Shown piece after piece: positions 42,422 to 63,906 of a DNA stretch of 64,000 bases. Both the position numbers and the translations under genes were made by a program. Under the pieces are notes generated by a model, which did no database searches, was not told the origin of the DNA, and saw only the letters and a list, made by a program, of their open reading frames with translations. Every line of letters starts with the position of its first letter. Position 1 is the first letter of the stretch. The stretch is from assembly GCA_965214255.1 (NCBI GenBank), contig OZ243948.1:1094225-1158224 (forward strand), given 5' to 3'. Origin of the DNA: Alphaproteobacteria bacterium. GTDB lineage: Bacteria; Pseudomonadota; Alphaproteobacteria; SMXP01.

Positions 42422-45251
42422 ATGCGCCTGTCGTGGAACGAGGTTCGCGCGCGGGCGGCCGCCTTTGCCCGGGAGTGGGGTGAGGCGTCTTACGAGAGAG
42501 GCGAGACCCAGAGTTTCTACAACGACTTCTTCGAAGTGTTCGGCGTGCGCCGACGCACGGTGGCGCGCTACGAGGCGCATGTGGCCAAGCTGGACGAGAG
42601 GCGCGGCTTCATCGACCTGTTCTGGCCCGGCGTGCTGATGGTCGAGCAGAAGAGCGCAGGGCGCGGGCTCGCCGCGGCCCTGGACCAGGCGGGGGCCTAT
42701 TTCGACGCCCTGCCCGAGCGCGAGCGCCCCCGCTACATTCTGGTGAGCGATTTCCGCACCTTCGAGCTTCACGATCTGGAAGAGCGCAGCACCACGGCCT
42801 TCGCCCTCGCCGACCTGCCCGCCCATGTCGAGGCGTTCGGCTTCATCCTCGGCGTCGAGCGCCGCGCCTTCCGAGATCAGGACCCGGCCAATATCGAGGC
42901 CGCAGAACTGGTCGGACGGCTCCACGACGCCCTCGACGCGGCCGGCTACCGCGGGCACGACCTGGAGCGGTTCCTCGTGCGCATCGTCTTCTGCCTGTTC
43001 GCGGACGATACCGGCATCTTCGAGCCGCGCGACATCTTCCTCGATTTCATCGAGACACGCACCGCCGAGGACGGCGCCGGCCTCGGGCCCTGGCTGGCGC
43101 AACTGTTCCAGGTGCTGGACACGCCGCAGAGCGAGCGGACCGCCACGCTGGACGAGGACCTGGCCCGCTTCCCCCATATCAACGGCGACCTGTTCGACGG
43201 GCCCCTGCGCATCCCCTCCTTCGATGCGGACATGCGCGCCAAGCTGCTCGACGCCTGCCGCTTCGACTGGTCGAACATCTCGCCCGCGGTCTTCGGCGCG
43301 TTGTTCCAGTCGGTCATGGACCCGGCGGAGCGCCGCGCCCAAGGCGCGCACTACACCACCGAGACGAACATCTTGAAAGTGATCGAGCCGCTGTTTCTGG
43401 ACGATCTGCGCGCCGAGTTCGCGCGGCTGAAGGCGCGCCGCGACAGCCGCCGTCGCCCCGACCTGCTGGCGTTTCAGGAGAAGCTGGGCGCCATGCGTTT
43501 TTTCGACCCCGCCTGCGGCTGCGGCAACTTTCTTATCATCGCCTACCGCGAACTGAGGCTTATGGAAATCGAGGTGCTGAAGGAAATCCACCCGAGGGCG
43601 CCGGACGGACGGCAAACCGACGCTCTGGCTGAGACCCTGTCGGTGATCGACGTCGACCGGTTCTACGGGATCGAACTCGGCGAGTTTCCGGCGCGCATCG
43701 CGGAGACCGCGCTGTGGATGATGGACCACATCATGAACAACCGTCTGAGCCTGGAGTTCGGCCGGACTTATGCGCGCATCCCCCTTGAGAAATCGCCGCG
43801 CATCGTCCACGGCGACGCGCTGGAGATCGACTGGCGGGCGGTGCTGCCGCCGCAGACCTGCTCATACCTGTTCGGCAATCCGCCGTTTGCGGGGGCGAAG
43901 TACCAGACGCCGGAGCAGCGCGCGCAGGTGCGCCGCATCGCGGCGCTGGGCAAGAGCGGCGGGACGCTGGATTACGTCGCCGCGTGGTTCATCAAGGCGG
44001 GGGAGTATGTGAAGGGCGGCGATACGCGCATCGGCTTCGTCGCCACCAACTCGATCAGCCAGGGCGAACAGGTGGCGCAGCTTTGGCCGCTTCTGTTCGA
44101 GCGCTGCGGGCTGGAAATCGCTTTCGCGCACCGCACTTTCGCCTGGGGCTCGGACGCGCGCGGCAAGGCCCACGTGCATGTGGTGATCGTCGGGCTCGGT
44201 TGGGGGGGGGCGTACACAAGCGCAGAAGCGTCTGTTCAATTATCCCGACATCAAGGGCCCGCCGGAGGAGAGCCGCCACGCGGCATTGTCGCCCTATCTG
44301 TTCGACGCCGAGGGTCTAAGCGACCCGCACCTCACGGTGCGCGAGGAAAGCCGACCGATCAATGGGATGGGGCGGTTGATTACAGGTACTCAGCCGCTTG
44401 AAGACGGAAATCTGACCTTTTCAAGTGAGGAGAAGGCAGCCTTTCTCGAACATGAACCGGGTGCCGGACCGTATTTCCGACCGTTTCCGGGTGCACGCGA
44501 GTTCATTCGCGGTGATTTACGATGGATTCTCCACACAGCGGAAATCCCTCCCCAAAAACTACGCAGCTTACCTATGGTTGTCGAACGGCTGAAGGCAGTT
44601 CGCGAGTTCCGGGCGAAAAGCAAGAGGCAGACCACCAAACGGCTTGCCGACTATCCGAGCGCTTATGGTGTAACGGTTGTACCGGAATACCCGTTCCTAA
44701 TTGTCCCGCAGACCAGTTCCGAACGACGTGAATATGTGCCGATTGGTTATCTTGAACCACCGGTAATCCCAAGTGAAAAACTTCGACTTCTGCCCAACGC
44801 TACTTTAGCCGACTTTGCCCTGCTGACCTCCGCCATGCACATGGCATGGATGCGGGCGGTTACGGGACGGCTGGAGAGCCGTTACATGTACTCCGTCGGC
44901 GTCGTCTACAACACCTTCCCCACACCGCCGGGCTTTGCGGACGGAAGGGCAGACCTTTTGAGGCTGGAGCCGCTCGCCCAAGCCGTGCTCGACGCCCGCG
45001 CCGCCCACGCCGGGGCCGCGCTGGCCGATCTCTACGACCCGGACCTGACGCCGCCGGACTTGCGCCGCGCCCATGCCCGCCTCGATAGCGCCGTGGACCG
45101 GCTCTACCGGCGCGGCGGCTTCGCCTCCGAACGCGAGCGCGTCCGGCATCTGTTCAAGCTCTATGAAACCATGCGCGCGCCGCTGACGGCCGACATCGAG
45201 GGACGTCGGAAACGGCGGCGGCGAACCGGGGCCGAACGGACGCGGTCATGA
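42422..45251 (+). pseudogene. MmeI-like type IIL restriction-modification enzyme split by a +1 frameshift at G9 (44202-44210); about 942 aa if one G is removed
   Basis: GFIDLFWPG...VEQKS nuclease, GAHYT, FDPACGCGNF (motif I), GNPPF (motif IV); after the G run the coding frame switches to RTQAQKRLFNYPDI...SSERREYVPIG. Confidence 0.9.
44202..44210 (+). repeat. G9 homopolymer at the frameshift site of the R-M gene
   Basis: CTC GGT TGG GGG GGG G CGT ACA CAA GCG CAG AAG CGT. Confidence 0.9.
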
Positions 45252-49838: not shown

Positions 49839-49971
49839 GGCATTGCCTCCGCGATGATCCCGAGAGTCCGAGTATGCAAAGGCGGCGGCGCCGTGGCAAG
49901 TGGCCTGCGGTTGCGGTTTCGTGTTAGAAACACCTCAACTTGAACTCCACTCCAAACCGCGGGAGTATGAC

Positions 49972-51000
49972 ATGATCAATCGACGCGCCTTCGTTGCCGC
50001 AAGCTCCGGCCTGTTGATGACGTCGGGCCTCACCCTGCCCCGTCGCGCCTTTGCCGCCGATTACGGCCATATCGGCAAAGAACCGCCCTTAAGCGACTTT
50101 ACCCGGGACTCGACGTCCGAAGAAGTGACCGCCGGATTGGACCTCACGGGCAAGACGGTCGTCATCACCGGCGCGAACTCCGGCCTCGGCTACGAAACCA
50201 TGCGGGTGCTGGCCATGCGCGGCGCGCACGTCATCGGCACCGGACGCACGGCCGAGAAAGCGGAAACGGCGGCCGCGAGCGTCGAAGGGAACGTGACGCC
50301 CGTCGTTCTGGAGTTGACGGATTTCGACTCCATCGCCGCGTGCGCACGAGACATCGAAGCGCTGGGCGCGCCCGTCGACGTCCTGATTTGCAATGCGGGC
50401 ATCATGGCCTTGCCGGAACGCGAACTCGTGCGCGGGATCGAAAGACAATTCGCGGTCAATCACTTGGGACATTTCGTTTTCTCCAATCTACTGCTCGACA
50501 GCGTAAAGGCCGCGCCGCAGGGCCGTTTCGTCATCGTTTCGAGCGAAGGTTACAAGTCCGCCCCCGAGGACGGCATACAGTTCGATGATCTGTCCTGGGA
50601 AGCGGGCTATGAGCCGTGGACGGCCTACGGTCATTCGAAGCTCGCCAATCAACTGTTCGCGCAGGAATTGGGCCGTCGGCTGCAAGGTTCGACCGCGACG
50701 GCCAATTCCATCCATCCCGGCGTCATCGCGACAAATCTGGCGCGCCACATGATGCCCGGGATTGCCGTGCGATTCGTCTCGGTCTTCGGCGGCTGGTTCA
50801 TCGACGACTTCAAATCGACTCCTCAAGGGGCGGCGACGCAATGCTACGTCGCGACCGCGCCCGCTCTGGAAGGCGTGAGCGGCGTCTACTTCGCCGACTG
50901 CAATCCGCGCGAGCCCGAAACCCCGCACATGTTGAACGAGGACATGGCGGCGCGGCTGTGGGACGTTTCCGTCGAGTTGTCGGAAGGATATGTAAGTTAG
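49972..51000 (+). CDS. Retinol-dehydrogenase/WWOX-like SDR with Tat-like signal
   Basis: MINRRAFV...AFA signal, ITGANSGLG, CNAGIM, NHLGHF, YGHSK, HPGVI; GGGAG RBS. Confidence 0.9.
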   Translation: MINRRAFVAASSGLLMTSGLTLPRRAFAADYGHIGKEPPLSDFTRDSTSEEVTAGLDLTGKTVVITGANSGLGYETMRVLAMRGAHVIGTGRTAEKAETAAASVEGNVTPVVLELTDFDSIAACARDIEALGAPVDVLICNAGIMALPERELVRGIERQFAVNHLGHFVFSNLLLDSVKAAPQGRFVIVSSEGYKSAPEDGIQFDDLSWEAGYEPWTAYGHSKLANQLFAQELGRRLQGSTATANSIHPGVIATNLARHMMPGIAVRFVSVFGGWFIDDFKSTPQGAATQCYVATAPALEGVSGVYFADCNPREPETPHMLNEDMAARLWDVSVELSEGYVS

Positions 51001-51689: not shown

Positions 51690-52050
51690 ACGGCGCGGCC
51701 AATTCTTCGCGTGCATAGCAGGCTGGCATGGCTGGCGACTTCCAACGTCCGGCGTTCTGCATTTCGACTAATCCCGCGCCCTTCGCCGCTAGCGATTGCG
51801 TAGTGCCGACGCGCAAGCTGTGGCTGCTTATCCGGCCTTCCAGTCCGGCGGCCGCCGCGCGCTGTGCCGCCCTTATCTATACGTTGGAAGATAGGCGCGT
51901 CCGCGTCTTCGACCCCCAACGCCGGACGGCTGCGACTGTTTCCGCCCGACAAACAACGCCGCGCCTTCGCCTTCCCGATCCGTCTTTTCTTTCCGTATAC
52001 GGACGGTATTCACGCCCTCGGCTTCGAGAGCGGCGAGCATGAGGCGCCCG
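51690..52050 (-). pseudogene. Frameshifted C-terminal remnant of a Cre-like tyrosine recombinase
   Basis: Across frames: RIRKEKTDREGEGAALFVG (Lys loop), AAAAGLEGRISSHSLRVG (HxxR), QNAGRWKSPAMPACYAR (Trp and Tyr); N-terminal part absent. Confidence 0.8.
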
Positions 52051-52085
52051 GCCTGTTGCAGGAGCGCGCGAGTCGGCGTGCGGCG

Positions 52086-52160
52086 TCTGTTCCGACGGCA
52101 AGCCCCGAGGCGTCCGTCGTTCATGGCCGCGACCCTCAGCCGCTTTCCGGTCCGATGATT
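52086..52160. repeat. Cassette 3'-end repeat, homologous to 54254-54328
   Basis: TCTGTTC(C/T)GACGGCAAGCCCCGAGGCG(T/C)CCGTCGTTCATGGCCG...GCTT(T/C)CCGGTCCGA is shared by both. Confidence 0.85.
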
Positions 52161-54106
52161 GAGCGGCTAACCTCGGCTTGGTTCATGTGCTCGTTCGATA
52201 TGAATTCCATCGCGTTCCGGTGCGCTTGGCCGTCACGGTAGCCGTTTATGAGATAGAGGTCGAACGCGGCGGTGCGGCTGGCGGAGAAAATATCGTTGAG
52301 CGCCTCGGCTTGGCCCCGCTCCCGAAATTCCGGCAGGAACCGGTAGGCGGTTCTGGCGACATAGGTGCAATCGTAGGCTTCCGCTGACTGCGTCTGGCAG
52401 CGCTCCAATTCCTCGCGAAGCACGTCGGTCGATGGGTTCGTCGCCAGCCGGTCGACAAGCCGCCTCTCGGCGGAGTCGGCGGACTTCAAGATGTCGGTGC
52501 GAATCCAGAAGCCCGTCAGGGCTTCCGGGTTTTCCTTGCACCGCTCCCTGGTCCAGGGCGACACCCAAGCCTTGATCGGCCTGTAGCGTTGAACGAAGCG
52601 CGGGTCGGAAAAAATGTCACCGTCATACCGACAAGACCAAAAGGCATGGCTTTCGATCATATCCGGAGCCGCGTAGTCGAAGAAGTAATCCGCCAAAGAG
52701 GGTCCCGATATCTTCGCCATGATGGGCGAGCCGAGGAGACCGAAATCCACAATGTTGAACTTTTTATGCCAACTCATCGCGCCAAGGTCGGGATTGGAAA
52801 CCGTTGGGCGCGGCAGTGCCTCCCTCTCGGCGACACGTGCGAATTCGGACCTGGTGCCGTCAAATAACCACGTCCCCCAACCTGCCTTGTAAGGAGCGAC
52901 GACGTTCATGCTGAACACCGCGACCGCGATGGCCCCCAGCGCCGGTGCAGTTAACAGCGTGCGCCGTATGCTTCCGAGGCTTGTAAGGTGGTAGAACATC
53001 GCGGCGGTACCCAGCGCCGCGAAAACAGCCACATGCGTCGTGAGACGGGCTCGGTCCATCCGGGCCGGACCGAAAACCCACTCGCTGAACACGGCGGTCA
53101 GGATCAGGCTGCCGACAAGCAGCAGCAACAGGACGGTCTGCCGGCAGCGAGACAACACGAAGATGACGGGCAAAGCCAGCAAGAGAACGAAACCCCCGTG
53201 ATAAGAGAGAATGTCGCCGTTGGGAAGCGGCCAGGAGCGCAGATTGTCCGGAACGGAGATGGACTGGGCATATGCGGTGTTGGGCAGCAGATCGCCAAAA
53301 TAAAAATACCGCCATAGCTGAAACAGACCCCACGATACCAGCACGATCGATGAAAAACGCATCCCGCGCCAGTCCCGGAACACGAACCACCAGAACGCGC
53401 CGAAAATGACCAGCAGCGGGGCGATGTGGAATATGCTTTCAACCCTTGAAACCGTCGCCAGAAAAACCGGGATCGACCACAGGTAGACAACCCGCTCCAT
53501 CCTGACCTGAGAAACCAATATCAGGACGGTTGCCAGAAAGAGAACGTGCGTGATGGCATTCTCCATTCCCGAACCGTGCCATTGGAGAAACGGTCTGAGG
53601 AAAGTGAGAAACAGCGCGGCCAGCGCGGTCAGGACCAAGGCCGGAATTGTCCGCTCCTTGAAGAAGAGCGCGAACAGAGCGCCCAGCAGAAACGTCGCGA
53701 CAGCGGTCTGAACCGCCGCATAAACGGCGTAATCCGTTCCGGTCACGGCGTAGACCGCAGCGAAGAGGAAGAGTTGGACAGGGGCCGAATAGCCTTCGAC
53801 ACGTCCCCCGGAAGGGTTGACCCCGATGAAACCGTATTCCACCAGATTCCTGGCGTGGCTCATCGTGATCACGCCATCGTCACGGACCTGATAGTAAGAG
53901 TTCGGTATGTCCGAATAGGCCCAATGAAAGGCAAGGTAGAAAATAAGCCCGCCGAGCAGCGGCAGAAAAATGCGAGCGTTGACGACCGATACGAGCGATT
54001 CGCGGATGCGTTCGCGTATCGCAGCCCCCTCGACCGGCGCGTTGCGCAACGGGGTGGACAGGGTCTCCCCTTCGGCGGCGTCCGCTGGCCGTATGCCCCC
54101 CCCCAT
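52136..54106 (-). CDS. GT-C-fold (AftB/ArnT-like) membrane glycosyltransferase, cassette 1
   Basis: RDDGVITMSHARNL..G.IGVNP.G.RVEGYS, SGMEN, SRVE motifs; many TM segments plus a C-terminal soluble domain. Confidence 0.8.
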   Translation of the reverse strand: MGGGIRPADAAEGETLSTPLRNAPVEGAAIRERIRESLVSVVNARIFLPLLGGLIFYLAFHWAYSDIPNSYYQVRDDGVITMSHARNLVEYGFIGVNPSGGRVEGYSAPVQLFLFAAVYAVTGTDYAVYAAVQTAVATFLLGALFALFFKERTIPALVLTALAALFLTFLRPFLQWHGSGMENAITHVLFLATVLILVSQVRMERVVYLWSIPVFLATVSRVESIFHIAPLLVIFGAFWWFVFRDWRGMRFSSIVLVSWGLFQLWRYFYFGDLLPNTAYAQSISVPDNLRSWPLPNGDILSYHGGFVLLLALPVIFVLSRCRQTVLLLLLVGSLILTAVFSEWVFGPARMDRARLTTHVAVFAALGTAAMFYHLTSLGSIRRTLLTAPALGAIAVAVFSMNVVAPYKAGWGTWLFDGTRSEFARVAEREALPRPTVSNPDLGAMSWHKKFNIVDFGLLGSPIMAKISGPSLADYFFDYAAPDMIESHAFWSCRYDGDIFSDPRFVQRYRPIKAWVSPWTRERCKENPEALTGFWIRTDILKSADSAERRLVDRLATNPSTDVLREELERCQTQSAEAYDCTYVARTAYRFLPEFRERGQAEALNDIFSASRTAAFDLYLINGYRDGQAHRNAMEFISNEHMNQAEVSRSIIGPESG

Positions 54107-54266
54107 CTACGCGGGTTGTTTCCGTGGCAACGATCATTGTTCGTCCTTCTCGGGTGGCTGGCTCATGCGATGTATAAGAGCGGCCGCCGCGTACATCAAG
54201 AGTCCCGATTCGTCCAAAACATGCCGTCGAATTCCACCAACGGATCATCGGACTCTGTTCTGACGG
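54096..54266 (-). promoter_or_regulatory. Conserved leader cassette copy A: promoter, RBS, ATG and G9 tract
   Basis: Minus strand TTGATG-N17-TATACA (54199-54171), AAGGA-N7-ATG 54137, G9 at 54104-54096. Confidence 0.8.
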
Positions 54267-54288
54267 CAAGCCCCGAGGCGCCCGTCGT

Positions 54289-56670
54289 TCATGGCCGGGG
54301 TCCTCCGTCGCTTCCCGGTCCGACGACAATGGCGCCCTCCCAGAGGCGGCCCTCGCCGGGGATGTATTGGCCGGTGCGGATCTCGGCGAGCGGGTAGTCC
54401 GGCAGTTCGCGCACCGCCGTGCAACGCTCTGCGAACTTTATACGGAAGTCCAGATTGTCGAAACCGTCTTGCCGGCGCCCGGCGGGAAGATCACGCTCGT
54501 CAACCGGAACCACGTGCAGGAAGAACACCGCGTCGTGGTCCAGACGGCACGGCCGCTTGAAGTAGAGCAGGCGGTTCCCCAGCAGATAGACATCGAACAC
54601 CGAGCGGATGGCGGCTGTCCTCACCCGCTCGACCTCTTCCAGCCGGGACGGGTCGTCGACGACCGACTTGGTCCACTTCAGGGGCATTGTGGCGGTGGCC
54701 CGGCACAGCCCGGTCTCGTTGATCGTCCAGCGCTGGAGTGCCGGTTCGTCCGCCTCTTCGTTCCACCAGGGCCATACCAGCAGCTCGTCCGGCGCGCAAT
54801 TCCCGGCGAACGCCCGCACTCGGGGCCATTTGGGAGCAGGATCCACCATGAACCCCATATCCACCGACCGGTAGTCGAAATCTGGCGCCGCCTTCTCCCA
54901 GGACAGGTCGGCGTATTGCATGTCTCGCACATGCAGGTTTCGCCCGGCGAAACGCTCTAGAACCCACGCCTCGTCCGGGGAGTCGAAAGGCATCCAGAGA
55001 TCCGGGCCGACCCGCACGGCGTATCGCGCCATCATGAGCGCTTTCGTTGGATTGTCCGCCGCGGGATGTACGTTGATGTTAACGCCCCGCTCTTCGAGGT
55101 ATCCCGGCGGCGGTCGCCGGTCATGGGCGATTTTGCGTTGGCGATTGGGCCTGGCGACCGGGTTGCGGGCTATGGTGGCGTCGGTCAGTCCTTGCTCGTC
55201 GATGACTTTCAGGTCCGGGAGATAATAGAATCGGATTCCGATTGCACCCGCGCTCATCAGCGCATCCTCGGGAATGAGTCCCCGCTCCATGTGCTCGTAG
55301 GCCTTGTAACTTAGAAGCTGTCCTGCGGCGAACGCGCGGTGTCTTGAAAAGGATGCAGCGACGGACTGCCGGGCGGTCAAACGCCGCAGGTCGTTGGAGA
55401 CGGCGACGAGCATCGGCATTCCCGGAGCGGCCAGCAGCCACCCGGCGTTGTCGCTGTCGAGTTCTAAATGCCGTTGATGCGGTCGAGAAACCCACTCAAG
55501 CAAGTCCCGTGTCGCGGCGCCCTCAAACAGCAGCGCGCTCTGGAGCGCGCCGGCATAGAACAACACCGGCGCGAATACGACCGCCGCCCAGGCCCGTGCG
55601 CCCATCTTTCCAAGCCCGGGAAGCCAGCGAACCGCGGCCAGACGCGAGCCGAGGTGCACGATCCCCGCCGCCGCGGGCAGCGCCAGCAGCGGCCAGTAGA
55701 AGTCCAGCGGCCGGTACTCGAAATGGTCCCCGCCGACCCGCATCACGTAAGCCATGTGAACGCCGATCAGAACAAGCGGCAGCGCGAACGCCCCGTCCCG
55801 GCACGCCCGCCAGCGCTCGCGCGCGGCAACGGCGGCCAGGGGCAGCAGAAGATACAGCCCCGTCTCCAGAGCCGCCGCCCACAGGTAGCGAAAGCCCGAC
55901 TCGTACCAGGGCCGCACGTGCTTGGCGTAGTACGCGTTGGGCAGCCACTCGCCGTAATAACCGTAGCGGAACAGGTAGTGAGCGGCCACCAGCGCGACGA
56001 AGGGCGCCGCCAGCCATGCCAGCCGCCGCCAGTCCGGCCGCAGACGCCCGGCGTCCGCCATCGACTGGGCGGCGAACCAGCCGATGCACAAGACCCCGAT
56101 CAACAACCCTTCGGGCCGGGTCCAGGCCGCCAGCGCCAGACTCAGCGCCGCCACCGCCAAGCCCCAACGCCGGTCGCGCCACAGGCTCAGGCAGACCACC
56201 GCCGCAACGGTGAACAGGGTGAACTGCCGCGTTTCCAGGCCGCCGCCCGAGGTCCATACCGCGAAGGTGGCGCTGGAGCACAACAGGCCGAAGGCCATCC
56301 AGGCGACCAGCCGCCGATGGCGCAGCAGCGGCAGGCGGGCGAGCCACACGCCCAGCATGGCGATAACGCCGACGGTGCAGACCACGGACAACCACGGCGC
56401 CGCCTGCTCCGGGGGAACCCCGAGCACCCCCCAGATCGCGGCCAGTTCCAGCACCCACAGGAAGTTGGTGTAGCCCTCGACATATTCGCCCGGATTGAAG
56501 ACCAGCCCGTGCCCTTCCAGCAGGTTGCGGACGTAGCGGAAGCTGATGAAGGCGTCGTCGCAGAGGAACCAGGCGACGGCGGAGAACCAGCCCAGCAGCG
56601 CCAGCCACGGCAGAAGCGACAGCGCAACCCCCGCGTTCCGGATCAGGCCCCTTTCGGCAAGACCCGTCAC
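54289..56670 (-). CDS. GT-C-fold AftB-like membrane glycosyltransferase with extra C-terminal domain, cassette 2
   Basis: DDAFISFRYVRNLLEGHGLVFNPGEYVEGYTNFLW, GGLET, TRPEG, GEWLPNAYYAK, GGD.F, D.QGLTD..IA. Confidence 0.85.
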   Translation of the reverse strand: MTGLAERGLIRNAGVALSLLPWLALLGWFSAVAWFLCDDAFISFRYVRNLLEGHGLVFNPGEYVEGYTNFLWVLELAAIWGVLGVPPEQAAPWLSVVCTVGVIAMLGVWLARLPLLRHRRLVAWMAFGLLCSSATFAVWTSGGGLETRQFTLFTVAAVVCLSLWRDRRWGLAVAALSLALAAWTRPEGLLIGVLCIGWFAAQSMADAGRLRPDWRRLAWLAAPFVALVAAHYLFRYGYYGEWLPNAYYAKHVRPWYESGFRYLWAAALETGLYLLLPLAAVAARERWRACRDGAFALPLVLIGVHMAYVMRVGGDHFEYRPLDFYWPLLALPAAAGIVHLGSRLAAVRWLPGLGKMGARAWAAVVFAPVLFYAGALQSALLFEGAATRDLLEWVSRPHQRHLELDSDNAGWLLAAPGMPMLVAVSNDLRRLTARQSVAASFSRHRAFAAGQLLSYKAYEHMERGLIPEDALMSAGAIGIRFYYLPDLKVIDEQGLTDATIARNPVARPNRQRKIAHDRRPPPGYLEERGVNINVHPAADNPTKALMMARYAVRVGPDLWMPFDSPDEAWVLERFAGRNLHVRDMQYADLSWEKAAPDFDYRSVDMGFMVDPAPKWPRVRAFAGNCAPDELLVWPWWNEEADEPALQRWTINETGLCRATATMPLKWTKSVVDDPSRLEEVERVRTAAIRSVFDVYLLGNRLLYFKRPCRLDHDAVFFLHVVPVDERDLPAGRRQDGFDNLDFRIKFAERCTAVRELPDYPLAEIRTGQYIPGEGRLWEGAIVVGPGSDGGPRP

Positions 56671-56706
56671 AACTCAAGCCTGCGCGAGAGTGACGATGCG
56701 AAACCG

Positions 56707-56895
56707 CCCCCCCCCATCTACGCGGGTTGTTTCCGTGGCAACGATCATTGTTCGTCCTTCTCGGGTGACTGGCTCATGCGATGTATAAGAGCGCCCGTCG
56801 CGTACATCAAGAGTTCCGATTCGTCCAAAACATGCCATCGAATTCCGGCAACGGATCATCGGCCTCTGTTCCGACGGAAGGCAAGAGGCTCTCCT
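56707..56895 (-). promoter_or_regulatory. Conserved leader cassette copy B (G9)
   Basis: Near-identical to copy A; ATG 56748, G9 at 56715-56707. Confidence 0.8.
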
Positions 56896-58875
56896 TCATC
56901 GGGGAGGGTTGCCGCGGTGGGCACGGCCTGCCGGCGTTGTTGTGATCCGGACGGGACGACCGGCATCGTTAGGTAATTCAAGGACGCTGGATAAAATCCT
57001 CCGGTCGTCGTTCTCGTCTATGGTTTCCCACGGACGCCAAAGGCGAGACCGTTCCCCTTCCCCGGTCGACCAGGAAAACACCAACGTCTCGTCACGCGTT
57101 GCCGCCGCCGCATAATCCTTGAAGAACGCCTGCGCCATGTTGCCGTCGACGACGACCGCGACGGACTCCGACTCGTAATCGAAGTGAGGCGTCATTTTCT
57201 CCCAGAACCAGGCGTCGTTGTCGAACTCGCCCGATGATACCTCCGGCGGCCGGGCAAGCCAGAGTTTAAATCGCCGGTCGTGCTGGCCGAGGAGGGCACT
57301 GAGATATGAAAATGGAGGGCCTTCGAACAGTATTATTTTATTGGTGGGTCGGTCGGGTCCGAAGACATTGGCGAAATGGGTAATCCCGAACTGCCGTCGC
57401 AACGCGACCTCGGTTCCTTGAACCCGGGGGCGGCCGACCCTTAGGGCCCGCATGTAGTCGTAGGAATTCACCACACCGTCCAGATTCACCACCGGGAAGC
57501 GGGAGAAGTATCCGATGACGCCGGAGTCAAATGACCCGATCACGCTGCCCTCGGGCAGTACGCGGTTCATCACCCGCGTGCCCAGGTAGCTGGTGATCTC
57601 CCACTCGCGCTTGGAGAACTCGCTGTTCCGGTCGACGGTCCGGAACGGGCCGGCAAAGTCCGCCTGGATGAGCAACGCGACCGCGCCTGCGGTGACGATG
57701 CTCACGCGCGGGACAGCGGCCGCACGGCCGCGCCTGGGTTCGACGAAGCGACGAACCAGGTGCAACGCGACGTAACATGCGACCGGCACGGTCAACGCCT
57801 CCATCAGATAGGCCGGAACGAAGTAGCGTGAGTATCCTCCCCAGATCGGGTGCACCATGAGCACCGTCTGCGCAAACTTCGCCAAGTGGCCCGCCGCCAA
57901 GCCGAACGCACCCGCCAGAAAGATCAGGAGCAGTCTGTCGTCTCTCCCGCGGACGCGGCGGGTGGACCACAGAACCAGCAGAACGCAAACGCAGAGTCCC
58001 AGGGCCGCCGCCAGCTCGGTATCGAAGGCAGGAATTTGCAGGACCGCCTGGAAGTTTTCCGCGAGATTGTACCCGCCGTCCCGCTCCCAACGGTCCTGCG
58101 ACCACATTTGCCTGATCGCCCCGCTCACCGGGACGGCGCCGCCGAAGACAAGCCGGTTGTAGGCGAAGTAGGCGAGGATGCCCGCACAGGCGCCGAACAG
58201 CGGAATACACGCCCGCAGAGCGGATGGCGCGCGGGGCGGACGGTCTCTCGGATCCGACCACTCGACAAGACACAGCATCGCCGTTGTCGCCACCGAAACG
58301 GCGGCGAACTCCAGTCGGACCCATGGCAGAGCGAAGACCACGGCGGCCAGCGTCCAAGTCCATCGCGCCGGGTTCCGCGCAAAGAGAGTCAATGTCAGGA
58401 ACAACAGACCCAGCATGAACAGCGCCGCGGCGCTTTCCATTCCTCCAAAGAAGACTCCATTTCCGAGACGGTAGAGAAACGGCAGCAAGGCGAACAGCAG
58501 AATCCAGGGCAGCCGCGCTATACGGGCGGCCAGAACGATGAGCGCCGCGCCGCCGGCGACAAGCATGATCTCGAACGCCTTGATGGCGAACAGCGCGGTC
58601 TCGGCGTCGAATATCCAGTAGAACGGCGTTATGAGCAGCATCCAGATGGGATGATACCCGTTGGTCAGGGTAATGCCGCCGTCGAAGGTCGAGAATTTCC
58701 CTTCCGCCAGATTCCTGGCGATCTGAAAGTAGTAGAAGGAGTCGTCATCGTTTACGTCGCGGAGCAGGTTGGCCAAGTCGTAGTGGGCGAGCAGATACCA
58801 GGCGAATGCGCCCCCATACATGAGGATGGCGCCGATGAACACGGCGACCGGCGCGTTACGCAACGGGGTGGACAA
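56896..58875 (-). CDS. GT-C-fold membrane glycosyltransferase-like protein, cassette 3
   Basis: DDSFYYFQIARNLAEG..STFDGG..TNGYHPIW, GMES, VRLE, PVSG, FDSGVIGYFS..VVNLDGVVN. Confidence 0.8.
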   Translation of the reverse strand: MSTPLRNAPVAVFIGAILMYGGAFAWYLLAHYDLANLLRDVNDDDSFYYFQIARNLAEGKFSTFDGGITLTNGYHPIWMLLITPFYWIFDAETALFAIKAFEIMLVAGGAALIVLAARIARLPWILLFALLPFLYRLGNGVFFGGMESAAALFMLGLLFLTLTLFARNPARWTWTLAAVVFALPWVRLEFAAVSVATTAMLCLVEWSDPRDRPPRAPSALRACIPLFGACAGILAYFAYNRLVFGGAVPVSGAIRQMWSQDRWERDGGYNLAENFQAVLQIPAFDTELAAALGLCVCVLLVLWSTRRVRGRDDRLLLIFLAGAFGLAAGHLAKFAQTVLMVHPIWGGYSRYFVPAYLMEALTVPVACYVALHLVRRFVEPRRGRAAAVPRVSIVTAGAVALLIQADFAGPFRTVDRNSEFSKREWEITSYLGTRVMNRVLPEGSVIGSFDSGVIGYFSRFPVVNLDGVVNSYDYMRALRVGRPRVQGTEVALRRQFGITHFANVFGPDRPTNKIILFEGPPFSYLSALLGQHDRRFKLWLARPPEVSSGEFDNDAWFWEKMTPHFDYESESVAVVVDGNMAQAFFKDYAAAATRDETLVFSWSTGEGERSRLWRPWETIDENDDRRILSSVLELPNDAGRPVRITTTPAGRAHRGNPPR

Positions 58876-58909
58876 AGTCTCCCCCTCGGCGGCCTCCGCC
58901 GGTCGTGCA

Positions 58910-59100
58910 CCCCCCCCCCATCTACGCGGGTTGTTTCCGTGGCAACGATCATTGTTCGTCCTTATCGGGTGACTGGCTCATGCGACGTATACGAGCGGCC
59001 GCCGCGTACATCAAGAGTTCCGATTTCGTCTAAAACATGCCGTTGAATTCCATCAACGGATCATCGGCCTCTGTTCCGACGGAAGGCAAGAGGCTCTCCT
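58910..59100 (-). promoter_or_regulatory. Conserved leader cassette copy C (G10)
   Basis: Near-identical to copies A and B; ATG 58952, G10 at 58919-58910. Confidence 0.8.
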
Positions 59101-61071
59101 TCATCGGGGAGGGTTGCCGCGGTGGGCACGGCCTGCCGGCGCCGTTGTGATCCGGACGGGACGACCGGCATCGTTAGGTAATTCAAAGACGCTGGTCAAG
59201 ATCCTCCGGTCGTCGTTCTCGTCCATGGTTTCCCACGGACGCCAAAGGCGAGACCGTTCCCCTTCCCCGGTCGACCAGGAAAACACCAACGTCTCGTCAC
59301 GCGTTGCCGCCGCCGCATAATCCTTGAAGAACGCCTGCGCCATATTGCCGTCGACGACGACCGCGACGGACTCCGACTCGTAATCGAAGTGGGGCGTCAT
59401 TTTCTCCCAGAACCAGGCGTCGTTGTCGAACTCGCCCGATGATGCCTCCGGCGGCCGGGCAAGCCAGAGTTTAAATCTCGGGTCGTCTCGGCCGAAGGCA
59501 CTGAGATATGAAAATGGAGGGCCTTCGAACAGTATTATTTCGTTGGTGTGTCGGTCGGGTCCGAAGACATTGGCGATATGGGTAATCCCGAACTGCCGTC
59601 GCAACGCGACCTCGGTTCCTTGAACCCGGGGGCGGCCGACCCTTAGGGCCCGCATGTAGTCGTAGGAATTCACCACACCGTCCAGATTCACCACCGGGAA
59701 GCGGGAGAAGTATCCGATGACGCCGGAGTCAAATGACCCGATCACGCTGCCCTCGGGCAGTAAGCGGTTCATCACCCGCGTGCCCAGGTAGCTGGTGATC
59801 TCCCACTCGCGCTCGGAGAACTCGCTGTTCCGGTCGACGGTCCGGAACGGGCCGGCAAAGTCCGCCTGGATGAGCAACGCGACCGCGCCTGCGGTGACGA
59901 TGCTCACGCGCGGGACAGCGGCCGCACGGCCGAGCCTGGGTTCGACGAAGCGACGAACCAGGTGCAACGCGACGTAACATGCGACCGGCACGATCAGCGC
60001 CTCCATCAGATAGGCCGGAACGAAGTAGCGTGGGTATCCTCCCCAGATCGGGTGCACCATGAGCACCGTCTGCGCAAACTTCGCCAGGTGACCCGCCGCC
60101 AAGCCGAACGCACCCGCCAGAAAGATCAGGAGCAACCTGTCGTCCCTCCCGCGGACGCGGCGGGTGGACCACAGAACCAGCAGAACGCAAACGCAGAGTC
60201 CCAGGGCCGCCGCCAACTCGGTATCGAAGGCATGAATCTGCAGGACCGCCTGGAAGTTTTGCGCGAGACTGTACCCGCCGTCGTGTTCCCAACGGACCTG
60301 CGACCACACTTGCCTGATCGCCCCGCTCACCGGCACGGCGCCGCCGAAGACAAGCTGGTTGTAGGCGAAGTAGGCGAGGATGCCCGCACAGGCGCCGAAC
60401 AGCGGAATATACGCCCGCAGAGCGGATGGCGCGCGGGGCGAACGGTTGCTCGGATCCGACCACTCGACAAGACACAGCATCGCCGTTGTCGCCACCGAAA
60501 CGGCGACGAACTCCAGGCGGACCCATGGCAGGGCGAAGGCCGCGGCGGCCAGCAGCCAGGTCCCCCGCGCCGGGCTCCGCGCAAAGAGAGTCAATGTCAG
60601 GAACAACAGGCCCAGCATGAACAACGCCGCGGCGCTTTCCATCCCTGTAAGGAAGGTTTCATGACGGTAGAGAAACGGCAGCACGGCGAACAGCAGAATC
60701 CAGGGCAACCGCGCTATGCGGGCGGCCAGAACGATGCAAGCTGCGCCGCCGGCGACAAGCATGATCTCGAACGCCTTGATGGCGAACAACGCGGTCTCGG
60801 CGTCGAATATCCAGTAGAACGGGGTGATGAGCAGCATCCAGATGGGGTGATACCCGTTGGTCCGGGTAATGCCGCCGTCGAAGGTCGAGAATTTCCCTTC
60901 GGCCAGATTTTTGGCGATCTGAAAGTAGTAGAAGGAGTCGTCACCGTTTACGTCGCGGAGCAGGTTGGGCAGGTCGTAGTGGGCGAGCATGTAGCAGGCG
61001 AACGCGCCTCCATACATGAGGACGGCGCCGATGAACACGGCGACCGGCGCGTTACGCAACGGGGTGGACAA
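59101..61071 (-). CDS. GT-C-fold membrane glycosyltransferase-like protein, cassette 4 (recent tandem paralog of cassette 3)
   Basis: Mostly identical to 56896-58875 with clustered differences. Confidence 0.8.
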   Translation of the reverse strand: MSTPLRNAPVAVFIGAVLMYGGAFACYMLAHYDLPNLLRDVNGDDSFYYFQIAKNLAEGKFSTFDGGITRTNGYHPIWMLLITPFYWIFDAETALFAIKAFEIMLVAGGAACIVLAARIARLPWILLFAVLPFLYRHETFLTGMESAAALFMLGLLFLTLTLFARSPARGTWLLAAAAFALPWVRLEFVAVSVATTAMLCLVEWSDPSNRSPRAPSALRAYIPLFGACAGILAYFAYNQLVFGGAVPVSGAIRQVWSQVRWEHDGGYSLAQNFQAVLQIHAFDTELAAALGLCVCVLLVLWSTRRVRGRDDRLLLIFLAGAFGLAAGHLAKFAQTVLMVHPIWGGYPRYFVPAYLMEALIVPVACYVALHLVRRFVEPRLGRAAAVPRVSIVTAGAVALLIQADFAGPFRTVDRNSEFSEREWEITSYLGTRVMNRLLPEGSVIGSFDSGVIGYFSRFPVVNLDGVVNSYDYMRALRVGRPRVQGTEVALRRQFGITHIANVFGPDRHTNEIILFEGPPFSYLSAFGRDDPRFKLWLARPPEASSGEFDNDAWFWEKMTPHFDYESESVAVVVDGNMAQAFFKDYAAAATRDETLVFSWSTGEGERSRLWRPWETMDENDDRRILTSVFELPNDAGRPVRITTAPAGRAHRGNPPR

Positions 61072-61102
61072 GGTCTCCCCCTCGGCCTCCGCCGGTCGTG
61101 CG

Positions 61103-61200
61103 CCCCCCCCCCGCCGTTCGCGCGGGCGGTTTCCGTGGCAACGGTCATTGTTCGTCCTTGTCGGGTGACTGGCTCATGCGACGTATACGAGCGCCCGCCG
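61103..61200 (-). promoter_or_regulatory. Leader cassette copy D (G10), more diverged and truncated upstream of the -10 region
   Basis: AAGGA-N7-ATG 61148 (MTVATETARANG), G10 at 61112-61103, TATACG; similarity ends near 61200. Confidence 0.75.
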
Positions 61201-61279
61201 AGCGATGAAAAAAGCGCCGCCTCCGATCAGGGCCGCGCCGCCCAAACCTCCATAGTAAAGCAGGCGCCGTCTATTCATG

Positions 61280-62647
61280 TCATGTCCCCTTCGCCAAGTA
61301 GTCCGCCAGCCTCAGCGATAACGCCACAATCGTGAAGGTCGGATTGGCCGCTGCAGTAGACGGAAACAGTGAGGAACCTGCGACATACAAGTTCTTCACT
61401 CCATGCACTCGACCCTGCGCGTCGGTGACGGACAGCGTCGGATCGCTTCCCATGCGAGTGGTTCCCATCATGTGACCCCCTCCGACATCGCTTCCCGTCC
61501 TTTGCGGAGGCCCCATCCTGCCAAGGCCGGAGCGTATCAGTTGAGCATTGAGATGCTTGTAAGCGGCCAGTGTTTCTTGAGGATCGAATTTCAATGCCAC
61601 ATGGGCGATCGGCTGTCCCATATGATCTCTCCGGGACTTTGAAAGAGTGACCCTGTTCCCGGCATCGGGACTCATTTCTGTACGAACCTCCGTATTCGTC
61701 GCCATGACCCGTCTGCTTTTCCCGAGAAGGTTCTTCGATAGAATCCGTGGCGGTCGCCACGGTCGACTCACCTCGAACGTCGCCGATATCAGTCGATGCG
61801 TATTCGAAAACTCGGAGGACAGCGCGATGGCGTGAACTATCGGAGACTTGGGCGAAGTCTGCACCATCAGGTTCCGGAACTTCTCCCAATCCAGAATCAA
61901 GGACGCATATCCGGGAATGTGAGGGTGTTCGCAAAAATACCGGCCTATGGGAAGTTCCCGGTTGTCGGGAAGAGAAAGTTGCAACAGACGAGCATTTTGT
62001 ATGCCGCCGGCCGCGAGCACGATCTTGCGTCCCGACACCTCCGCTGGAGATTGCCTGTCGCCTGACGAGTCCCGGATGAAGATACGCGAGGCGGCGCCGT
62101 TCCGGATGCCCACATTCGTTACCGTATGATTGAATAGCACGCTAACGGTCCCGCTTCGTGCCAGCCAATCTCCGAACGAGATGCGACGCGACCCGTATGG
62201 GATTATATAGTACGGCTTGCAAACGATATTCGGATTATCGGGAAAGGCCTTTTCGGGAAGGGTATGAGATTCCTCCGGCAAGCCCAATATCTTCGCGGCT
62301 TCCGGATACCATTTATAGAGGTCGTCGTACGCGAACGGCCATTCATGGTTCAAGAACGGACGTTTCTCCAATACCGCGCACCAGCCACTCCAAACCGTGG
62401 ACGTGCCGCCGAACATCCGCTGGTTGTGTCTAAGATAAGACCTGGTCGGAATATCGCCGTCGGCGTCCAGGACGTTGAGCTTTTGGGCTTCGCTTTCGAA
62501 ATCCGATCGATCTCCGCTTTCCACTATGAGCGTTTTGCCGGTCGCGAGTTCATCGTACTTGCGGGCCAAGGCCAAGCCTGCGGGACCTGAGCCTACGATA
62601 ATCAAGTCGTACGTGTTTCCGCTCAAAGCGCCCGCGTCGATTTCCAT
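61280..62647 (-). CDS. GMC-family FAD oxidoreductase
   Basis: IIVGSGPAG, FGGTSTVW, LAAGGIQNARLL, HMMGTTRMG, SLFP...ANPTFTIVALSLRLA. Confidence 0.92.
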   Translation of the reverse strand: MEIDAGALSGNTYDLIIVGSGPAGLALARKYDELATGKTLIVESGDRSDFESEAQKLNVLDADGDIPTRSYLRHNQRMFGGTSTVWSGWCAVLEKRPFLNHEWPFAYDDLYKWYPEAAKILGLPEESHTLPEKAFPDNPNIVCKPYYIIPYGSRRISFGDWLARSGTVSVLFNHTVTNVGIRNGAASRIFIRDSSGDRQSPAEVSGRKIVLAAGGIQNARLLQLSLPDNRELPIGRYFCEHPHIPGYASLILDWEKFRNLMVQTSPKSPIVHAIALSSEFSNTHRLISATFEVSRPWRPPRILSKNLLGKSRRVMATNTEVRTEMSPDAGNRVTLSKSRRDHMGQPIAHVALKFDPQETLAAYKHLNAQLIRSGLGRMGPPQRTGSDVGGGHMMGTTRMGSDPTLSVTDAQGRVHGVKNLYVAGSSLFPSTAAANPTFTIVALSLRLADYLAKGT

Positions 62648-62713
62648 GTCTGCCTCTTTCTTACGTCAAGCCCCGAGGCGCCGTGGAACGTGCGGGGACC
62701 CTCACCCGGCGCG

Positions 62714-63850
62714 TCATTCCGCCGCCGCTCTCGTTTCTTCCGCGGCCGGCATGAGAGGAACGGGATCGAGCACCCAATTGCCCGTGGTGCGGCGGCGCGG
62801 GCACGGAACGGCAAAAGCCGCATCGCCCCGCTTGGCGCGCAACGTCTGCACATCGATACGCCAGCCTTTGTTTCTCCACTCTTTGAGTATCTCGCGATAG
62901 CGCAGGATCGCGCGGTCGGCGGGCATCATCACTTCCCGGCTATTGGTCGCCGGCGTGCGCACCGGCTCCACTTCGCCCAGCACGACACGGTCCTGATCGC
63001 TGATGACCATATTGCGGGCGTGAATGCGCTCGTCATATTCCGGGTCCAGAAGGCAATTGCGCATATTGATAAAGAAACTGCGCGTCCTGTTTCCATCGAT
63101 CGGCGCGCTGAAAGCGTATTGATGAAACCAATTGGTCTCGGTGAGATGGATATGAGTGGTGAGGCTGTTGGGGCCGTGCACGAACGTCGATGCGACCGTG
63201 GTGCCGGACGATTGGCGGATCCTGTTCATCGTCCCGTCCTTATATCCCGATGACTCCATCTCAAGCGTAAAGCCGCACCCGAAGGGGCGTTCTTCCACTT
63301 CGAAGTCCTTCACGCGGTAGTCGCCCTTTTCACCCGAATAGCCGTGGGTCGGATGGACGAACTCGTTGTGCGACGGGTCGAGCGCATTCTCCATGCTGCG
63401 TTCGTAATAGATGTCGTTTTCTCTCACCACGAGCCGGTTGCTGCGCCAGCCGCTTCGGCCGAATTCCGGAACGGGGTAAAGAGGAGGGCGCTCTTCGTCG
63501 GGAAGGTCGCCCAGAAACGCAAAAACGATCCCGTATTTTTCCTGCACCGGATAGGAATCCACTTTCGCGCGCGCCGGCGGCTTGGCGCCGTAACCGAGCG
63601 AAGGCACGGTCGTGCACAGACCGTCGCCCCCATAACGCCAGCCGTGATAGGGGCAAACCACCGAGCCGTCCTTGACCCGGCCCTTGCCCAGCGAGCCGCC
63701 GCGGTGAACGCAGGTATCGCTCAAGACATGCGCGGTTCCCGACATATCCCGAAAGGCCGCTACTTTGACGCCCAGAATCTCGACGCGGCAGGGTTCGTCG
63801 GATTTGACCTCTTCGCTCGCGGCGATGGGATACCAGAAGTTGATGTACAT
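62714..63850 (-). CDS. Rieske non-heme iron oxygenase alpha subunit (paralog of 28670-29776)
   Basis: MYINFWY, CVH...CPYH, ENALDPSHNEFVH; AAGGAG RBS. Confidence 0.93.
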   Translation of the reverse strand: MYINFWYPIAASEEVKSDEPCRVEILGVKVAAFRDMSGTAHVLSDTCVHRGGSLGKGRVKDGSVVCPYHGWRYGGDGLCTTVPSLGYGAKPPARAKVDSYPVQEKYGIVFAFLGDLPDEERPPLYPVPEFGRSGWRSNRLVVRENDIYYERSMENALDPSHNEFVHPTHGYSGEKGDYRVKDFEVEERPFGCGFTLEMESSGYKDGTMNRIRQSSGTTVASTFVHGPNSLTTHIHLTETNWFHQYAFSAPIDGNRTRSFFINMRNCLLDPEYDERIHARNMVISDQDRVVLGEVEPVRTPATNSREVMMPADRAILRYREILKEWRNKGWRIDVQTLRAKRGDAAFAVPCPRRRTTGNWVLDPVPLMPAAEETRAAAE

Positions 63851-63906
63851 GGCGCTCACTCCTTAGCGGGGCGCGGGGGCGTCCTCGTCACGCGACGCAG
63901 CGAAGT

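Follow-up and report, generated by a model that had tools for sequence, protein, structure and literature searches.

A poly-G leader module ahead of four tandem GT-C-fold glycosyltransferase genes in an uncultured alphaproteobacterium: a candidate phase-variable array

Four glycosyltransferase-like genes behind one module

The window analysed here comprises 64,000 nucleotides (nt) of DNA from an Alphaproteobacteria bacterium whose genome is a single contig of 2.787 Mb with 56.9% G+C. Between positions 52136 and 61190, four co-oriented frames are arranged in tandem on the minus strand, each behind one common module that ends in a tract of G residues. Each gene is referred to together with its module as a cassette, numbered 1 to 4; unless genome positions are named, coordinates are those of the window and descend in the direction of reading. 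The array is proposed to consist of four independently switchable genes for glycosyltransferases of the GT-C fold.

The genes are of three types. Cassette 1 carries the type 1 gene (52136-54106; 656 amino acids, aa, as listed), whose product is predicted to be a GT-C-fold membrane glycosyltransferase. The GT-C-like type 2 protein of cassette 2 (54289-56670) has 793 aa when counted from the GTG at 56670. Cassettes 3 (56896-58875) and 4 (59101-61071) both contain type 3 genes, 92% identical, with predicted GT-C-fold products of 659 and 656 aa counted from TTG codons at 58875 and 61071, respectively; in cassette 3 the frame stays open upstream to the tract. None of the four proteins, type 1 included, reached a Pfam gathering threshold, the sole row being a chance-level match to LGFP (14.5 bits against 22), and the precomputed Pfam annotation is blank for nearly all of the listed homologues.

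The fold was assigned by profile and structure comparison. A profile of 52 homologues of the type 1 protein matched the PDB entry of AftB at E 3.1e-4. When the AlphaFold2 model of type 1 (predicted local distance difference test score, pLDDT, 89.8; predicted template-modelling score 0.88) was compared with the PDB by Foldseek, the first 29 matches were all GT-C proteins, namely AftB (9dlh; E 5.4e-6), STT3, PglB, ALG12, ArnT, DPY19, AftA, EmbB and PimE. The type 3 model (pLDDT 78.7) gave eight GT-C proteins as its first eight matches, including STT3A, AftA and PglB. For type 2, the NCBIfam AftB model NF041481 matched at E 3.5e-7, and it returned no match for cassettes 1, 3 and 4. Orthology with AftB was rejected, the score of 28.7 bits standing against a curated equivalog cut-off of 1050. 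Type 2 is also connected to type 1 by a BLASTP match (9e-6) across the region of the DD motif described below, and by BLASTP to type 3. The four genes are therefore taken to encode GT-C-fold transferases of three remote subfamilies, as predicted from structure models for types 1 and 3 and from sequence similarity for type 2. An earlier annotation of this DNA, here called the original prediction, had proposed GT-C enzymes, and this identity is borne out by the models and Foldseek matches of types 1 and 3 and by the weak AftB-family match of type 2.

Between types, identity amounts to only 24-30% over the N-terminal region around an invariant DD motif (DDGVITMSHARNL, DDAFISFRYVRNL and DDDSFYYFQIARNL). 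D76/D77 are invariant in 52 type 1 sequences and D44/D45 in 52 type 3 sequences, and type 2 has DDAF; in the models, the motif would lie in the first outward loop. The GT-C fold and an invariant DD motif near the end of the first helix pair are features also of AftB/AftA/Emb, ArnT and PglB/STT3, whereas the identity to these enzymes is 10-16% and the TM-scores (template-modelling scores) are ~0.4-0.5. The ratio of nonsynonymous to synonymous substitution rates (dN/dS) is 0.35-0.43 among the three type 3 copies of the genome, and all frames are intact; to judge from sequence, the genes look functional. As a separate observation, types 2 and 3 share a 65-residue stretch of the C-terminal soluble domain with 35% identity (WEK..P.FDY...), their membrane parts being only remotely alike.

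The modules ahead of cassettes 1 to 4 are designated A to D and lie, like the genes, on the minus strand. Module A (54105-54243) contains a terminator-like hairpin (54243-54224), TTGATG (54199-54194), TATACA (54176-54171), AAGGA (54148-54144) and an ATG (54137-54135) opening the leader MIVATETTRVD, and is followed by tract A, a G9 (54096-54104; C9 on the plus strand). The same order is found in module B (56716-56854; hairpin 56854-56835, TTGATG 56810-56805, TATACA 56787-56782, AAGGA 56759-56755, ATG 56748-56746), where homology to the other modules stops exactly at tract B, also a G9 (56707-56715; C9 on the plus strand). Module C (58920-59059; hairpin 59059-59040, TTGATG 59014-59009, TATACG 58991-58986, AAGGA 58963-58959, ATG 58952-58950) precedes tract C, a G10 (58910-58919; C10 on the plus strand). 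Module D (61113-61190) consists of the core only, without the -35 part and the hairpin, its homology beginning ~85 nt ahead of the tract; it has TATACG (61187-61182), AAGGA (61159-61155), ATG (61148-61146) and a leader, MTVATETARANG, that is one codon longer, followed by tract D, a G10 (61103-61112; C10 on the plus strand). The leader peptide is MIVATETTRVDGGG in cassettes 1 to 3 and MTVATETARANGGGG in cassette 4. All four tracts start 33-36 nt past the leader ATG and have the length and position regarded as hypermutable (~8 or more G/C in the 5' coding region); from one tract to the next the distance is 2.2-2.6 kb.

Seven copies of the module exist in the genome, four in the window and three (E, F and G) in an inverted second cluster at genome positions 1.186-1.202 Mb, separated from the array by ~32 kb. 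In their alignment, a core of ~85 nt ending at the tract is nearly invariant in all seven and reads GCTC(G/T)TATAC(A/G)TCGCATGAGCCAG.CACCCGA.AAGGACGAACAATGA(T/C)CGTTG.CACGGAAA..., while ~120-190 nt are common to most copies. The preceding TTGATG region is found in six of the seven, and the hairpin CCGTTG.TGGAATTC.ACGG, followed by CATGTTTT, in copies A, B, C and E.

Most of this layout had been described in the original prediction. Four tandem genes behind a repeated element with tracts of 9, 9, 10 and 10 were recovered from the sequence and a run scan, as was the absence of any other G/C run of such length from the window except a G9 at 44202-44210 in a restriction-modification gene. The distances of 31, 77 and 77 nt from the leader ATG to the frame start in cassettes 1, 3 and 4 agree with the measured positions (54137/54106, 58952/58875 and 61148/61071). 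The spacing given as AAGGA-N7-ATG proved to be AAGGA-N6-ATG. A promoter TTGATG-N17-TATAC(A/G) had also been claimed; the motif is indeed present in copies A (54199-54171), B (56810-56782) and C (59014-58986) and absent in D, but the proposed -10 element has no T at its last position and is thus a poor sigma-70 match. Terminator-like sites are not in excess in the region (13 against a shuffled mean of 9.8), and only the three hairpins at equal module position were retained, as weak. An Rfam scan of 51800-61600 at E up to 0.1 gave one chance-level snoRNA row and no known RNA element in the module.

Reading frames across the tracts and the paralogue family

Tract lengths of G8 or G11 would put the leader ATG in frame with the gene in cassettes 1 (ATG 54137), 3 (ATG 58952) and 4 (ATG 61148), giving proteins of 730, 685 and 682 aa with the predicted fused N-terminus ...TRVDGGG(A/I)RPA(E/D)A(A)EGETLSTPLRNAPV (partly read by eye). 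A change of one unit toggles between the full-length and a truncated frame in these three cassettes and not in cassette 2. Where a second ATG is present, as in cassettes 1 and 3, it joins at G9 or G12, while G7, G10 and G13 join neither ATG; cassette 4 has no second ATG (...AACGGC-G10). In cassette 1, the second ATG consists of AT and the first G of the tract and is in frame at G9, which is why the frame listed as 52136-54106 starts at 54106. Read from the sequence, cassettes 3 and 4 are predicted to be OFF as sequenced, and cassette 1 to be OFF from the leader ATG, although its frame can be entered at the second ATG, a start codon without a Shine-Dalgarno sequence. The tract flanks of cassettes 1, 3 and 4 differ by 3-nt insertions or deletions, namely an additional GGC in leader D, a GCC by which C and D differ, and a CGG inserted behind 61082 in contigs of the public run X5 (see below); it looks as though both sides of the tract behave as coding sequence in these three cassettes.

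Cassette 2 differs. Its leader is in the gene frame at G9 and reads through the tract as MIVATETTRVDGGGRFRIVTLAQA*VVTGLAERG..., meeting a TGA at 56676-56674, two codons before the GTG at 56670; because of this in-frame stop codon no leader fusion is possible. The leader stop lies 3 nt before the GTG at G9, overlaps it at G8 and moves far into the gene at G10. The original prediction that the leaders of cassettes 1, 3 and 4 are out of frame as sequenced and become in-frame at G8 or G11 stands, cassette 2 being the exception. Likewise, the up to 16 combinatorial states that had been suggested are an upper bound on a weaker basis, one cassette being incapable of in-frame fusion.

The genome contains nine GT-C paralogues with a G-tract leader, one of type 1, five of type 2 and three of type 3, in the two inverted clusters. 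Copy E precedes a type 3 gene and has a G7, out of frame from the leader ATG. Copy F, before a type 2 gene, has an interrupted tract (GGGGGCGGCGG) and is likewise out of frame, the leader stop overlapping the GTG start. In copy G, also before a type 2 gene, a G9 leaves the leader ATG open straight into the gene, which is ON as sequenced. Tracts of paralogues thus differ (G7, G9, G10, interrupted). Two further type 2 paralogues use another leader, M(S/N)DGRAARGKWSVA-GGG-, one of them in frame and one not. Remnants of this leader follow cassettes 1 and 2 in the window: a partial repeat past cassette 1 (52086-52135, minus strand; ggccATGAACGACGG...CTTGCCGTCGGAACAGA), with the same junction sequence after cassette 2, is related to this second kind of G9 leader in cluster 2. 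Such mixed ON and OFF states across near-identical leaders are the look of a phase-variable gene family.

The second cluster holds four type 2 paralogues of cassette 2 with 87-90% identity, and GMC-oxidoreductase paralogues that are 97.6% identical head both clusters. The clusters form long inverted repeats, and the segment between them could invert. In cassette 1, the module and 25 codons are grafted onto the type 1 body, this extension being missing from type 1 homologues elsewhere. The original prediction of a portable module reused on different GT-C genes is supported, the same leader and tract standing on three divergent subfamilies. The repeat goes far beyond chance. The module is not unique to the four genes, given its seven genomic copies and the nine paralogues in two clusters.

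Tracts in the genome, in homologues and in other assemblies

The lengths of G/C runs in the genome are bimodal. Compared with random order, runs of 6 (439 observed, 1513 expected) and above all of 7 (36 and 430) and 8 (1 and 122) are depleted, while those of 9 (48 and 35), 10 (12 and 10) and 11 (3 and 2.8) form a second mode; with one run each of 15 and 18, the runs of 9 or more total 65. A/T runs, in contrast, fall steadily (1183, 241, 33, 3). For each run we asked whether a one-base change lengthens the open frame by at least 60 aa. Among the 65 long G/C tracts, the frame was longest with one base fewer in 23, with one more in 4 and as sequenced in 8, lay within 60 aa in 27, and was not long in any state in 3. 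For the 36 G/C runs of 7, the corresponding numbers were 1, 1, 14, 18 and 2, and for the 36 A/T runs of 8-9 they were 0, 1, 18, 16 and 1. Frame breaks are thus specific to the long G/C tracts, a one-base change lengthening the frame at 27/65 of them, against 2/36 and 1/36 in the two comparison classes.

Frames adjoining the tracts were compared with Pfam. The 39 frames used are the largest open frames flanking tracts selected from the 66 that are at least 8 long, and one of them spans two tracts. The selection omitted the eight leaders of G-tract GT-C genes, the paralogue twins (980557, 1021916, 1138426, 2412680) and any tract flanked by short frames alone; 1138426 was scanned separately. Fifteen of the 39 encode restriction-modification enzymes or DNA methylases (HsdM, HsdR, MmeI, type ISP, N6_N4 methylases) and four encode GT2 glycosyltransferases. 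Nine belong to other families (autotransporter, UDP-sugar dehydrogenase, sulfatase-family membrane protein, DUF6798 membrane protein, ion channel, glucose/sorbosone dehydrogenase, UbiD, a GDSL lipase below the cut-off, and a squalene-hopene-cyclase-like domain), and 11 had no match. This is the make-up of a classical phasome. The member inside the window is an MmeI-type (type IIL) restriction-modification gene on the plus strand (42422-44401, continuing to ~45470), in which the G9 at 44202-44210 breaks the frame mid-gene; with one G fewer the protein has 942 aa. A paralogue with the same flanks and in the same state is located at genome position 505844.

Beyond the genome, a search with the module DNA, as had been suggested with the original prediction, found the seven copies described above and none in 40 relatives (only the own genome among 41). 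Type 3 at E up to 1e-30 was found only in the own genome among 301 same-class and among 401 same-phylum genomes, and type 2 at E up to 1e-40 only in the own genome among 13 relatives. From this absence in the relatives, class and phylum samples it follows that the genes were probably acquired. A scan of genome contigs gave 3 loci only. Other assemblies contain many close homologues (55-81% identity), often with more than one on the same contig.

Many of these homologues encode a glycine run at the position of the tract. Among the best 120 type 3 homologues, 14 show three or more Gly and 28 show GG before (V)TLSSRLRNALF, the range being 2 to 8 Gly; of the rest, 12 are called from a start just behind the Gly position, 55 have other sequence and 11 are without the anchor motif. 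A metagenome-assembled genome (MAG) of the Chloroflexota carries two type 3 genes with G11, 12 nt before ...VTLPAPLRNALF, and a type 1 gene with G10 before the first helix. Its leader frames run into the tracts out of frame, with fusion at G10, G10 and G11. The genome-wide tract pattern is that of contingency loci and, like the homologues that read through a Gly run at the same place, supports the switch proposed in the original prediction. As side observations, this MAG (4.2 Mb) contains ~50 G/C runs of 9-16 nt, those of its GT-C homologues among them, and certain same-class genomes are rich in G9 (345 matches in G015, 61 in G023 and 54 in G012), with 3 matches in the same-genus genome G001.

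Tract lengths were compared in contigs of four public runs, X1, X4, X5 and X7. Tract C is one G shorter (G9) in the X1 contig than in the window (G10). In X5, a type 2 module with 10 mismatches is shorter by one G and a C/E-like copy by two bases, while an X4 contig that is three bases shorter fits paralogue E. For tract B, neither X1 nor X4 has an indel row listed. At some copies, the tract length thus differs between assemblies.

Phase variation and its alternatives

We interpret the array as four independently switchable GT-C-fold glycosyltransferase genes that undergo slipped-strand phase variation, the leader ATG serving as start and the translational frame deciding between ON and OFF, and assign to this reading a probability of roughly 0.68. 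It joins the anatomy, frames, fold and copy number shown above with the genome-wide tract class, the tract conservation in homologues and the differences between assemblies; the switching itself and the start codon used are what we infer. According to this model, slipped-strand mispairing at replication would alter a tract by one G. Each gene would be headed by one recombining module comprising a weak terminator-like hairpin, a possible weak promoter, AAGGA-N6-ATG, a leader of 11-12 codons and the G9-G10 tract, which would lie within the part coding for a cytoplasmic N-terminal tail where extra Gly residues could be tolerated. The leader ATG, which is expected to be well initiated, would thereby be placed in or out of frame, with ON at G8 or G11 for cassettes 1, 3 and 4, and expression would be switched in a heritable, reversible and stochastic manner. 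In cassette 2, the tract would only shift the end of the leader frame relative to the GTG at 56670 and might modulate coupled initiation. To judge from their fold, the enzymes would work on the outer face of the inner membrane, taking sugars from lipid-linked donors and attaching them to envelope glycans or proteins; a glycan target is presumed, and phage or grazer pressure is our guess for the selective agent.

Several observations count against this reading. No cassette of the window, nor copy E, has a length that places the leader ATG in frame. Cassette 2 and copy F with its interrupted tract cannot fuse, yet their gene bodies are intact, so downstream starts must be usable at least there; and GGAG stands 3 nt before both TTG 58875 and TTG 61071 (read by eye), which makes tract-independent initiation conceivable. 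A promoter scan did not flag the TTGATG-N17-TATACR sites, a weak promoter match. Only 10/120 listed type 2 homologues show a Gly run and 104/120 have none. In a metagenome scan that reached only distant relatives (22-47% identity), the gene strand carried a G run of at least 8 in 0/80 loci; a C8 run, at any position relative to the gene, occurred in 2/80. Tract A is G9, without gaps, in X1, X4 and X5, all three covering runs from two studies, and for tract D none of the four runs has a listed indel; the contigs show majority forms only and are silent on heterogeneity within the population. MutS and MutL are present in the genome, and loss of mismatch repair as the source of tract instability is thereby ruled out. 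Finally, the bias of 23:4 towards tracts with one G too many, taken with the single G8, could mean a systematic consensus error.

The downstream starts lead to an alternative that we regard as unlikely, in which the enzymes always start at TTG 58875, TTG 61071, GTG 56670 and ATG 54106 and the tract sets the stop of an upstream leader frame, tuning re-initiation or occlusion to a graded output. This proposal fits the leader stops in cassette 2 and in copy F, which fall 3 nt short of the GTG or overlap it while the gene itself is intact, and also the GGAG sequences of cassettes 3 and 4 and the 12/120 homologues that gene callers start just past the tract, with short tails. It is contradicted by copy G and many homologues, which read through the Gly run from an upstream start, and by the 3-nt indels on either side of the tract, which suggest one continuous coding frame; moreover, the equivalent downstream codon of cassette 1 is CTG, not TTG. 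Leader-frame coupling without fusion probably applies at least to cassette 2 and copy F.

It is improbable that the genes are decaying duplicates, recently amplified after horizontal acquisition and broken at long G runs as mutational hot spots without any adaptive switching. In favour of decay, the majority of the copies are out of frame, a nonsense codon is found in cassette 2 and the tract of copy F is interrupted; the absence of all three gene types from the relatives searched suggests a recent acquisition, and the dN/dS values indicate only moderate constraint. Against decay, every gene body of ~650-800 codons is intact past the tract, homologues in another phylum have tracts at the same place, and the tracts are concentrated in gene classes of contingency loci; accident would not keep runs of 9-11 nt or deplete those of 7-8. 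A consensus artefact, with real tracts but wrongly called lengths (for example one G too many) before genes that are stably in frame, could account for one run of 8 next to 48 of 9, for frames lengthened by removal of one G in 23/65 and by addition in 4/65, and for tract C in X1, but is likewise improbable: tract A is G9 in independent contigs of three runs from two studies, which argues against a consensus error of the window assembly there, tracts B (X1, X4) and D have no indel rows, frames are undisturbed at A/T runs of 8-9 and at G/C runs of 7, 8/65 long tracts are clearly best as sequenced, copy G and one gene with the alternative leader are in frame as sequenced, and no uniform shift frames cassettes 1, 3 and 4 together (one G fewer gives G8, G9 and G9).

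The proposed phase variation of the array by its tracts has well-known counterparts. Slipped-strand switching of surface-glycan genes is textbook knowledge for a few host-adapted pathogens, and G9 is the modal tract length in C. jejuni, as it is among the long tracts here. In the opa genes of Neisseria, CTCTT repeats in the signal-peptide coding region of ~11 paralogues switch each gene alone and create combinatorial surface states. The array resembles opa in that the repeat lies in an N-terminal leader-coding part common to many paralogues, and differs in that the opa repeat is a pentamer in closely paralogous adhesin genes, whereas here it is a homopolymer in the part for a predicted cytoplasmic tail, ahead of enzymes of three remote subfamilies.

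Poly-G/C contingency loci of Campylobacter jejuni, Helicobacter pylori and Neisseria, which make up a 'phasome' of lgt, pgl/pgtA, lipooligosaccharide, capsule and flagellin-glycan genes, are described in PMC6321876, PMC2192423, PMC2193922, PMC5953494 and PMC3068675. The likeness extends to G tracts of ~8-11 nt in the 5' coding part of glycosyltransferase and restriction-modification genes, tens of them per genome, with paralogous families among the targets. The targets in those pathogens are cytoplasmic GT-A/GT-B transferases, whereas here they are predicted GT-C integral membrane enzymes, one leader module stands on three subfamilies, and MutS and MutL are present. In the Salmonella and phage gtrABC systems, as described in PMC2909390, PMC3688519 and PMC12541327, the membrane transferase GtrC modifies an envelope glycan from a lipid-linked donor, and several horizontally acquired gtr clusters per genome phase-vary, resulting in mixed O-antigen populations and phage evasion. 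By analogy, this phase-variable O-antigen glucosylation would be the closest functional counterpart of the array. It differs in its switch, which is epigenetic (Dam/OxyR at the promoter) and not a repeat, and in that no gtrA/gtrB partner was found among the window frames scanned beside the array.

The mechanism is thus already known, and the enzyme family and the organism are new, which makes the novelty narrower than the original prediction implied. New are a GT-C class without a Pfam model, one module on three divergent genes, the conservation of the tract across phyla and the size of the phasome in an uncultured bacterium. A literature search, with subscription journals outside its scope, found no report of GT-C genes with poly-G tracts and none of environmental MAGs with large phasomes. 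If confirmed, the array would extend switching to a widespread family of GT-C membrane transferases in an uncultured bacterium, whose ~65 tracts lie on restriction-modification, glycan and surface-protein genes, and one leader and tract module copied before three divergent genes would be a natural example of a switch spreading within a genome. For long-read MAGs it would mean that genes 'frameshifted' at G9-G11 may be in real OFF states, and that tract counts per read are preferable to polishing the differences away. More tentatively, and with somewhat less than even odds in our view, the poly-G tract could be an old, horizontally travelling partner of the AftB-like GT-C family instead of a local invention. 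Free-living uncultured bacteria would then in general hedge their bets, presumably against phages, by large phasomes of simple sequence repeats with combinatorial envelope-glycan switching, which would not be a speciality of host-adapted pathogens. In that case the genome would illustrate the spread of a switch module to unrelated genes by recombination.

The array is flanked by oxidoreductase genes. Upstream on the minus strand (61280-63859) are a GMC-family FAD oxidoreductase (61280-62647) and a Rieske/VanA-type oxygenase, the best NCBIfam row of the latter being a 4-beta-methylsterol monooxygenase model far under its cut-off. Downstream, two small frames without a Pfam match come first, seen from the array, and then a short-chain dehydrogenase on the plus strand (49900-51000). 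A role of these flanking oxidoreductases in making or modifying a lipid-linked donor is a guess. In the second cluster (genome 1186000-1203000), on the opposite strand, five GT-C paralogues follow the paralogue of the GMC gene at 61280-62647.

GtrA-domain genes occur at three genome positions (75919, 1882415 and 1938615), none of them next to the array. Two of the domain matches, 1938615-1938965 and 1882415-1882759, lie in frames of 414 and 380 aa that adjoin tract-bearing membrane genes; the tract at 1936218 belongs to a DUF6798 protein of 712 aa and that at 1881533 to a 543-aa protein without a Pfam match. These loci may be further phase-variable systems for lipid-linked sugars.

Three minor observations concern single frames. 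In a potassium-channel-like gene (Ion_trans, genome 375529-376434), an unusual gene class for such a switch, a G9 lies right after the TVGYGD filter and the frame stops there; at G8 it would read ...PVTGGGRLFTSVVLM... and reach 344 aa. At genome position 983792, a G9 occupies the extreme 3' end of a 759-aa frame without a Pfam match (...ATAGAC-G9-TGA). A change in tract length there would alter either the C-terminus or the point at which the next gene starts, and the ~50 bases leading up to the tract look, by eye, like the 3' end of cassette 2. Lastly, a frame of 33 codons, MNRRRLLYYGGLGGAALIGGGAFFIARRALVYVA (61175-61276, minus strand), overlaps the stop codon of the GMC oxidoreductase and ends inside the core of module D at ...GTATACGTCGCATGA; read by eye, its product resembles a small membrane peptide.

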